This document shows positions 15,309 through 15,341 of a stretch of 64,000 nucleotides of DNA, one piece after another. How positions within the stretch are numbered: the first letter of the stretch is position 1; each line of letters begins with the position of its first letter. Source of the stretch: a virus. A program made the translations under genes and the position numbers. The notes beneath the pieces were generated by a model. The model worked only from the letters and a program-made list of their open reading frames with translations. It had not been told where the DNA came from and ran no database searches. Location of the stretch: the IMG/VR virus record IMGVR_UViG_3300005436_000501, positions 1 to 64,000 of that record; one strand, given 5' to 3'.

Positions 15309-15341
15309 TCCTTCGGTTCGACCCGCCGCGCGGCGGATGTG
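15309..15341 (-). promoter_or_regulatory. Permuted Ro-binding (Y RNA-stem-mimic) hairpin next to the rsr RBS
   Basis: CACAUCCGCC-GCGC-GGCGGGUCGAA followed by CC and GAAGGA (SD); same two motifs as the Y RNA ends, in reverse order. Confidence 0.6.

Follow-up and report, generated by a model that had tools for sequence, protein, structure and literature searches.

Does the messenger of a Ro60-type protein carry a device that gauges its own product? To our knowledge, no description exists of the way in which Ro60 levels are adjusted to those of its Y RNAs in cells and phages, and the question is raised here by a short hairpin in a provirus. The DNA analyzed (the window) is a stretch of 64,000 nucleotides (nt), positions 1 to 64,000 of the IMG/VR record IMGVR_UViG_3300005436_000501, which forms part of a 127-kb provirus record. 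On its minus strand, two Y RNAs precede the gene rsr, whose product Rsr is a Ro60 orthologue, and a 25-nt hairpin (15317..15341, minus strand) lies between the second Y RNA and the rsr start. We propose that this hairpin is an Rsr operator mimicking the Y RNA helix, which would block the 30S ribosomal subunit when free Rsr is in excess and for which the Y RNAs would compete; we give this reading a probability of roughly 0.55.

The hairpin is made of a B strand CACAUCCGCC (15341-15332), a GCGC loop (15331-15328) and an A strand GGCGGGUCGAA, read as GGCGGGU-C-GAA (15327-15317). Its helix comprises seven pairs, followed by the bulged C15320 and by the pair C15339-G15319, and the hairpin is located 16 nt upstream of the rsr ATG and 2 nt 5' of the Shine-Dalgarno sequence GAAGGA. 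A first-pass annotation, made from the letters of the window only, had described a circularly permuted copy of the Ro-binding helix ending at this distance from GAAGGA; its coordinates and description were correct, CACAUCCGCC-GCGC-GGCGGGUCGAA being read at 15341-15317, and the 2-nt interval was confirmed from the sequence. Both strands of the Y RNA helix are repeated in the hairpin with their order swapped, and they match those of the two Y RNAs of the locus letter for letter: CGGGUCGAA is present in both Y RNAs (15604-15596 and 15492-15484), as is CACAUCCG (15540-15533 and 15358-15351), and the hairpin has an extra CACAUCCG of its own, distinct from the Y RNA 2 copy. The combination CACATCCG-N4-14-CGGGTCGAA occurs once in the 64-kb window, compared to 0.00 occurrences in 100 dinucleotide shuffles. 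A covariance model (R1), built from 53 distinct aligned hairpins and searched against the window and the 160 rsr loci described below, gave the window hairpin a score of 43.8 bits (E 1.1e-10), and this was the sole R1 match in 64 kb at E ≤ 1. Taken by itself, CGGGTCGAA is found seven times in the window (0.95 expected). Four of these copies lie outside the rsr locus, at 421-429(-), 20157-20165(-), 51320-51328(+) and 52306-52314(+), in regions under long open reading frames (ORFs), and neither a partner strand nor a Shine-Dalgarno sequence was seen alongside them.

We then compared the hairpin with the features by which Y RNAs, operators and intrinsic terminators are recognized. The ends of a Y RNA are paired in a terminal stem with GNCGAA on the 5' strand, whereas the hairpin carries the motif on the 3' strand; the tRNA-like domain or large internal loop of a Y RNA is likewise missing, the loop of the element being 3-8 nt long. 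Like a Y RNA, the element is encoded next to rsr, in the window as in 61 of 87 close loci. As in an operator, it adjoins the ribosome-binding site of the mRNA that encodes the protein, and it resembles the primary RNA site of that protein. That the hairpin works independently of a protein, as a terminator or attenuator of the Y RNA transcript or as the decaying remnant of a junction between tandem Y RNAs, seems to us quite improbable. The G+C-rich stem would suit a terminator, but an intrinsic terminator also has a U tract behind its stem, whereas the letters following the hairpin are CGAACCGAAGGA, without such a tract, and a terminator scan of 15200-15850 called no site.

Conservation was analyzed in 160 rsr loci, 80 of them from a scan of viral contigs and 80 from a scan of species-representative genomes. 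The genome loci, found on chromosomes and plasmids, are almost all from Streptosporangiales (Nonomuraea, Streptosporangium, Actinomadura, Sphaerisporangium, Herbidospora and others). Close loci were defined as the 87, mostly from Streptosporangiales, whose Rsr is 56-80% identical. A compact R1 match (at most 45 nt and at least 24 bits, adjoining the rsr start) was detected in 61 of these 87 loci, in addition to the window. The first-pass annotation had suggested looking for a CACAY...GUCGAA hairpin upstream of other rsr genes, and the outcome was clearly positive, with these 61 close loci and analogous hairpins in distant phages. In the alignment, U8, C9, C10, G11, C24, G25-27, G30 and A31 are invariant and the bulged C29 is at least 90% conserved. 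Conservation of at least 90%, up to invariance, extends over the bulged C, the five pairs adjoining it and the first two letters of GAA, while the loops vary in sequence and length. Compensatory changes affect the top two or three pairs (CG to GC in L004 and L008; CG, GC, AU or GU for the last pair), and 95.8% of the alignment cells are paired. With RNAalifold, the hairpin was the only consensus structure in 54 leaders extending from 28 nt 5' of the hairpin through the start codon.

As unpaired bases are conserved, recognition by a protein seems more likely than mere structure, and the pattern is the signature of a predicted sequence-specific protein site on a helix. It also matches the pattern reported for Y RNA helices, the conserved bases (GNCGAA and the bulge) being known or proposed to be important for Ro60 binding. 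Passages of PMC4201824 present GNCGAA as the conserved YrlA motif and describe Ro60 as contacting mainly that strand; passages of PMC12135203 report for a phage Ro60 that each CGAA base contributes three- to four-fold and that a minimal stem-bulge-stem RNA binds at about 16 nM. The remnant of a tandem junction draws its appeal from the fact that in such junctions the 3' strand of one Y RNA by nature precedes the 5' strand of the next, and they do give R1 matches further upstream, which are weak and have 'loops' of 50-70 nt. It is opposed by the extra CACAUCCG of the element, separate from that of Y RNA 2, by the conservation of the unpaired bulge and GAA while loops drift, and by the retention of the same core on different stems in independent lineages.

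The position relative to the ribosome-binding site is conserved as well. In 65 hairpins (the window and 64 loci, including 4 weak matches), the Shine-Dalgarno core follows GUCGA by 0-10 nt, with a mode of 4, and a start codon was called for 63 of the 65, 11-23 nt past GUCGA; relatives have AAGGAG or GGAGG at the position equivalent to GAAGGA of the window. In L008, a 17-bp hairpin followed by UUUGUCGUUU stands between the last Y RNA and the element, from which we conclude that the element belongs to the rsr leader and does not accompany the Y RNA. Promoter and terminator scans of L008 gave nothing, the 9-nt loop of its 17-bp hairpin being beyond the limit of the scan. The Y RNAs of L003, L004 and L008 use GGGUUGAA, and the 3' strand of their leader hairpin is also of the U type (GGGUUGAG in L004 and L008, the degenerate GUGUUGAA in L003); in all other loci examined the hairpin is C-type or near C-type. 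Since the three loci probably belong to one clade, the match counts as one co-variation event, and gene conversion between Y RNAs and hairpin could be its source.

Two further observations concern these leaders. In L140 (536-1600), the hairpin, the Shine-Dalgarno sequence and the first ~16 rsr codons are followed by a GIY-YIG endonuclease ORF (563-1459, Pfam 28 bits), and the complete rsr restarts at 1501, the hairpin having remained at the old, relic rsr start; a homing endonuclease seems to have inserted here, with duplication of the 5' end of rsr. In L081, L089, L090 and many other loci, the 10-25 nt that lead from the last Y RNA up to the hairpin form a C/U-rich spacer (GCUCCCCUU...), for which pairing with AAGGAGC of the Shine-Dalgarno sequence is conceivable in some of them. 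A conserved anti-Shine-Dalgarno role for this spacer was considered and set aside, as the pairing appears in some single folds and gave no consensus pair in the 54 leaders with RNAalifold.

Specificity was assessed by searching R1 against about 31 Mb of sequence, made up of the provirus and three genomes of the host type. A score of at least 30 bits was reached by the leader of rsr in G000 and in G001 and by that of a relic rsr in G002, in which the intact rsr leader scored 25.3 bits. Other matches away from rsr were low-scoring and apparently in coding sequence, most of them without a Shine-Dalgarno sequence or start codon behind. A wider regulon was rejected, the non-rsr matches being a relic leader, a dispersed repeat and these low-scoring coding sites, and the additional CGGGTCGAA copies of the window lacking a partner strand. 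The element is real, conserved and specific to rsr leaders. The relic (L182; G002:C1:7079287-7079318 and flanks) is a second rsr locus that has kept a Y RNA and a 30.5-bit leader hairpin, together with a Shine-Dalgarno sequence and a truncated rsr-like start (MARDPL...) that then diverges, the intact rsr of G002 being elsewhere. The dispersed repeat (L183; G003:C1:1381850-1381880 and flanks), in a Herbidospora genome, contains GGGCGGGCCGAACC units, scores 29.5 bits and is not at a gene start.

Among distant viral loci, in which Rsr is 33-46% identical, hairpins of the same design in other sequence were seen, such as CCUUGCUCGUG-GGUUU-CACGAGC-C-GAA-UAAGGAG in L053 and CAUACUUCAGUAA-UAG-UUACUGAAGU-C-GAA-UAAGGAG in L069. 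A strict pattern was defined as a stem of at least 5 contiguous pairs with a loop of 3-20 nt, one bulged C and GAA, in which a pyrimidine 5' of the stem pairs with the G and this G is 6-32 nt before the start. In a discovery set of 64 distinct distant viral loci, the pattern was found in 6, compared to 0.72 expected from the rest of the same loci and 0.64 expected from dinucleotide shuffles, and 0 of 300 shuffles reached 6. A later set was obtained by a profile scan ranked on a distant Rsr and contained 48 distinct loci not seen before; the unchanged pattern was present in 11 of them (0.42 expected; 0 of 300 shuffles reached 11). These 11 comprise 4 of the L053 type (3 identical and 1 nearly so), 1 resembling L078 and 6 with new stem sequences, and near misses with GAU or without the closing pair (L195, L196, L197, L203) were left uncounted. 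Across 16 distinct distant hairpins the core is constant (UUG...C[C]GAA or CAUA...U[C]GAA) while stem pairs 1-5 covary freely, and a Shine-Dalgarno sequence is read 0-4 nt after GAA; within the L053 group, a GC pair is changed to AU in L164. The UUG...C[C]GAA form resembles the animal Y RNA helix (GGUCCGA with a bulged C). Single-protein scans with the Rsr of L071 and of L053 gave 2 and 5 loci, respectively; in a sampling of Actinomycetota, rsr was over the Pfam cut-off in 4 of 401 genomes, too sparse a yield; these loci were left out of the analysis, and no result depends on the unpublished genome G051.

What was observed directly is that the element exists, that it is conserved, where it is placed and that it resembles the helix of the Y RNAs, and autoregulation appears to be the best-supported reading of the hairpin. 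The hairpin would constitute a cis-acting Rsr site in the leader of the protein's own mRNA, with GGGU, the bulged C and GAA placed opposite CAYAUCC. Its loop links the two strands on the side that holds the termini in a Y RNA, and the mRNA consequently exits from the helix on the side from which the body of a Y RNA extends. We infer from the sequences that Rsr binds this site and represses, rather than activates or stabilises, the message: the 60-kDa Rsr ring seated on the hairpin would keep the 30S subunit off the ribosome-binding site and, as the Shine-Dalgarno sequence starts 0-10 nt after GAA, a bound ring should exclude it. Free Rsr would in this way shut off its own translation, Y RNAs would compete by sequestering Rsr and lift the block, and the output of Rsr would be matched to the number of Y RNAs, two here and up to four elsewhere. 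Such a feedback would make sense because one transcript, if Y RNAs and rsr share it, yields two to four Y RNAs but many copies of the protein.

Co-transcription is likely, given that the Y RNAs are on the same strand as rsr, directly 5' of the hairpin, at a distance often of only 8-40 nt, and often without room for a promoter of its own in front of the gene. On the minus strand of the window, the order of transcription is Y RNA 1, Y RNA 2, a 9-nt spacer, the hairpin, CC (15316-15315), GAAGGA and ATG, and a promoter scan of 15200-15850 gave no promoter-like site. The same arrangement would be compatible with an effect of Rsr on RNA processing or stability, the protein either capping the 5' end of the rsr mRNA after excision of the Y RNAs from a shared precursor or staying on the last Y RNA, where the hairpin would provide a second Rsr site that blocks 3'-to-5' trimming. 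Precedents exist in the literature, as passages of PMC4201824 describe Mycobacterium smegmatis Y RNAs upstream of rsr that derive from one precursor and a second Rsr-bound RNA between YrlA and rsr, and passages of PMC12135203 describe a phage Y-like RNA with two CGAA hairpins. We nevertheless hold such a role to be unlikely: it does not need the tight and conserved spacing to the Shine-Dalgarno sequence (0-10 nt in close loci, 0-4 nt in distant ones), and in L008 a terminator-like hairpin sets the last Y RNA apart from the element.

Several observations weigh against an Rsr operator. The other 26 of the 87 close loci have a degenerate copy (L003, L104, L127, L143, L154) or none, the hairpin being absent from all 6 Herbidospora loci. 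Six cultured actinophages (Cashline, Sparky, Myrna, Sixama, prophiT37-1 and FuzzBuster) have no separate mini hairpin, and five of them have neither the hairpin nor a Y RNA strand beside the Shine-Dalgarno sequence. Because of these 26 loci without a good copy and these five phages, the element is dispensable. Covariation in the close family is thin, as 2 of 9 stem pairs change on both sides and most never vary. Furthermore, the R1 seed was picked by a regular expression, which makes the invariance of its core partly a matter of construction; the independent part of the conservation evidence consists of the R1 matches outside the seed (L094, L121, L130, L150, L140) and of the RNAalifold run. 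In the distant loci, the strict pattern was devised after the cases of the discovery set had been seen, and the two sets are not fully independent, part of the later one being the L053 hairpin family. Lastly, as the Shine-Dalgarno sequence is outside the hairpin, repression depends on steric exclusion by the protein.

Folding adds to these points. In single-sequence folding, the hairpin of the window was not chosen and its pair probability was about 0. A competing helix between 15319-15335 and 15277-15293 (codons 3-9) reached -28.8 kcal/mol, compared to -19.7 kcal/mol with the hairpin enforced. From the pair table and stepwise folds, the start codon and codons 2-9 of rsr (15277..15300, minus strand) can pair with the hairpin as well as with some of the Shine-Dalgarno sequence, the helix extending to G15310, G15311 and G15314 of the Shine-Dalgarno sequence and to the U and G of AUG, and the hairpin is optimal only while the transcript stops before about codon 4. 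In 51 distinct contexts of relatives, the median pair probability of the hairpin was 0.87; it exceeded 0.5 in 37, was below 0.5 in 14, which again speaks against the operator, and was below 0.1 in 4. Five further contexts with fewer than 4 contiguous pairs under the simple rule of the script were dropped from this set.

Given the competing helix, Rsr binding might in this provirus open, and not close, the ribosome-binding site; the helix would fit activation by Rsr as well as repression, which complicates the direction of control. As a general explanation, positive control would mean that the hairpin competes with a helix locking the ribosome-binding site, and that Rsr binding or co-transcriptional trapping keeps the site open. 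The strength of the alternative helix in the window, which pairs Gs of the Shine-Dalgarno sequence and the AUG, argues for it, and a helix similar to that of the window was observed in L097. We nonetheless regard positive control as very doubtful, as the competitor lacks conservation, 37 of the 51 contexts are dominated by the hairpin, RNAalifold gave no second consensus helix, and the complementarity is due to the RDPL codons, which loci that have no hairpin possess too. A conserved switch based on codons 3-9 was rejected for the same lack of conservation in relatives, which makes the competing helix a local feature that depends on the RDPL codons.

Returning to the operator, the control that we propose would be of a known kind, autogenous and by ligand mimicry, applied here to Ro60/Rsr with a permuted mimic. 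Autogenous translational operators that mimic the main RNA ligand of the protein are those of the ribosomal proteins L1, S8, S15 and L20 and of threonyl-tRNA synthetase. The rsr hairpin is like them a short structured copy of the primary RNA site at the protein's own ribosome-binding site, with the same logic of titration; it differs in the protein, in the circular permutation of the mimic and in that binding and repression are here predictions. With the Ro60-binding helix of Y RNAs (bacterial YrlA/YrlB GNCGAA) it shares the motif GGGUCGAA of the 5' strand, the partner strand CAYAUCC and a single bulged pyrimidine before GAA, the Y RNAs themselves being 10-290 nt upstream; it differs by the swapped strands, the 3-8-nt loop and the location in an mRNA leader, and it lacks paired termini, an internal loop and any effector module, be it tRNA-like or of another kind. 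M. smegmatis YrlB, as described in passages of PMC4201824, is similarly placed between a tRNA-like Y RNA and rsr on a common precursor, but it is a small RNA in its own right, bound by Rsr and perhaps endowed with a T arm, whereas the element is a 25-nt hairpin abutting the Shine-Dalgarno sequence. The minimal mimic of Yrl2 from the Thermus phage phiLo, in the account given by passages of PMC12135203, is also a hairpin-sized CGAA RNA and suffices for Ro60 binding in vitro (about 16 nM); it differs in being engineered, in having CGAA apparently on the 5' strand and, in those passages, in not being reported at a ribosome-binding site. In full-text literature searches, no report of autoregulation of Ro60/Rsr was found, although supplementary Y RNA lists and figures of PMC4201824 could show such hairpins; the string 'autoregul' occurs 0 times in the text of PMC4201824 and PMC12135203 as available, and PMC8058203 names Ro60 only as an example of a ribonucleoprotein.

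A wider proposal, which we advance tentatively and at slightly less than even odds, is that Ro60-type proteins of bacteria and phages commonly gauge their own free concentration through a permuted mini Y-RNA helix at the ribosome-binding site. Several unrelated lineages would have gained or retained this helix, namely Streptosporangiales (on chromosomes, plasmids and proviruses) and no fewer than 4 groups of uncultured phages; it would be the smallest natural Ro60 ligand known and would set the ratio of Rsr to Y RNA. If the hairpin acts as proposed, feedback by ligand mimicry in the style of ribosomal proteins would extend to an RNA quality-control protein carried by phages. For the Ro60 and Y RNA field the interest is clear: a conserved natural hairpin of 25-30 nt with only the Ro-binding core would offer a direct handle on the balance between Ro60 and Y RNA, a minimal natural substrate for defining Ro60 recognition (the bulge, GAA and the need for a helix) and a new class of cis-regulatory RNA for the annotation of rsr loci. 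One cultured phage shows a different arrangement. In the last 40 nt before rsr of Microbacterium phage FuzzBuster (L177), the Shine-Dalgarno sequence is preceded without a gap by CCCACAUC, the 3' strand of the last Y RNA, and the full Y RNA helix may here take the role that the mini hairpin has elsewhere.

The gene controlled by the putative operator encodes a protein of 557 residues (13628..15301, minus strand), assigned as a Ro60 orthologue from the ORF list, Pfam and structure alignments. The ORF matches vWA_Ro60 (1.4e-38) and TROVE (2.9e-17), and the protein aligned in full length to Deinococcus radiodurans Rsr (2NVO; E 1.9e-79, residues 7-557 covered) and to 1YVP and 9NEN; the ring of TROVE/HEAT repeats and the vWA domain that define Ro60/Rsr are thus both present over the full length. 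GAAGGA (15309..15314, minus strand) is separated from the ATG at 15301 by a 7-nt spacer. ARAGORN found no tRNA in 15000-16000, no Rfam family reached its gathering threshold in the window, and Rfam matches in 15200-15900 were at chance level apart from a weak YrlA match on Y RNA 2. Facing the Y RNA-rsr unit, short overlapping ORFs form a divergent run on the plus strand (15783-18600). With Pfam, ORFs 16246-17034, 17034-17459 and 17455-18597 and the two ORFs beyond rsr gave no match at the curated cut-off, and one weak YqzH-like match below its cut-off was noted among these five.

The two Y RNAs were delimited from sequence and folding. Y RNA 1 (15512..15625, minus strand) has a long terminal stem around CCGGGUCGAA (15605-15596) and CACAUCCGGG (15540-15531), which is recovered in the minimum-energy fold of 15285-15640 (z = -2.5). 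Y RNA 2 (15351..15494, minus strand) is YrlA-like, with a 5' strand GACGGGUCGAAG, tRNA-like T and D arms and a 3' strand CACAUCCG, and its weak Rfam YrlA match is at 15383-15440 (E = 8). According to the first-pass annotation, both Y RNAs form a bulged-C helix; both strand motifs are indeed present in each, while the exact pairing with CACAUCC is possible in both and is the computed optimum in neither. In the minimum-energy folds, C15599 of Y RNA 1 is paired and not bulged, and Y RNA 2 adopts a shifted register in which C15487 is still bulged. Tandem arrays with as many as four Y RNAs, repeated at a period of about 170 nt, are found in Streptosporangiales rsr loci (at about 850-1500 in L002, L081, L099 and others).
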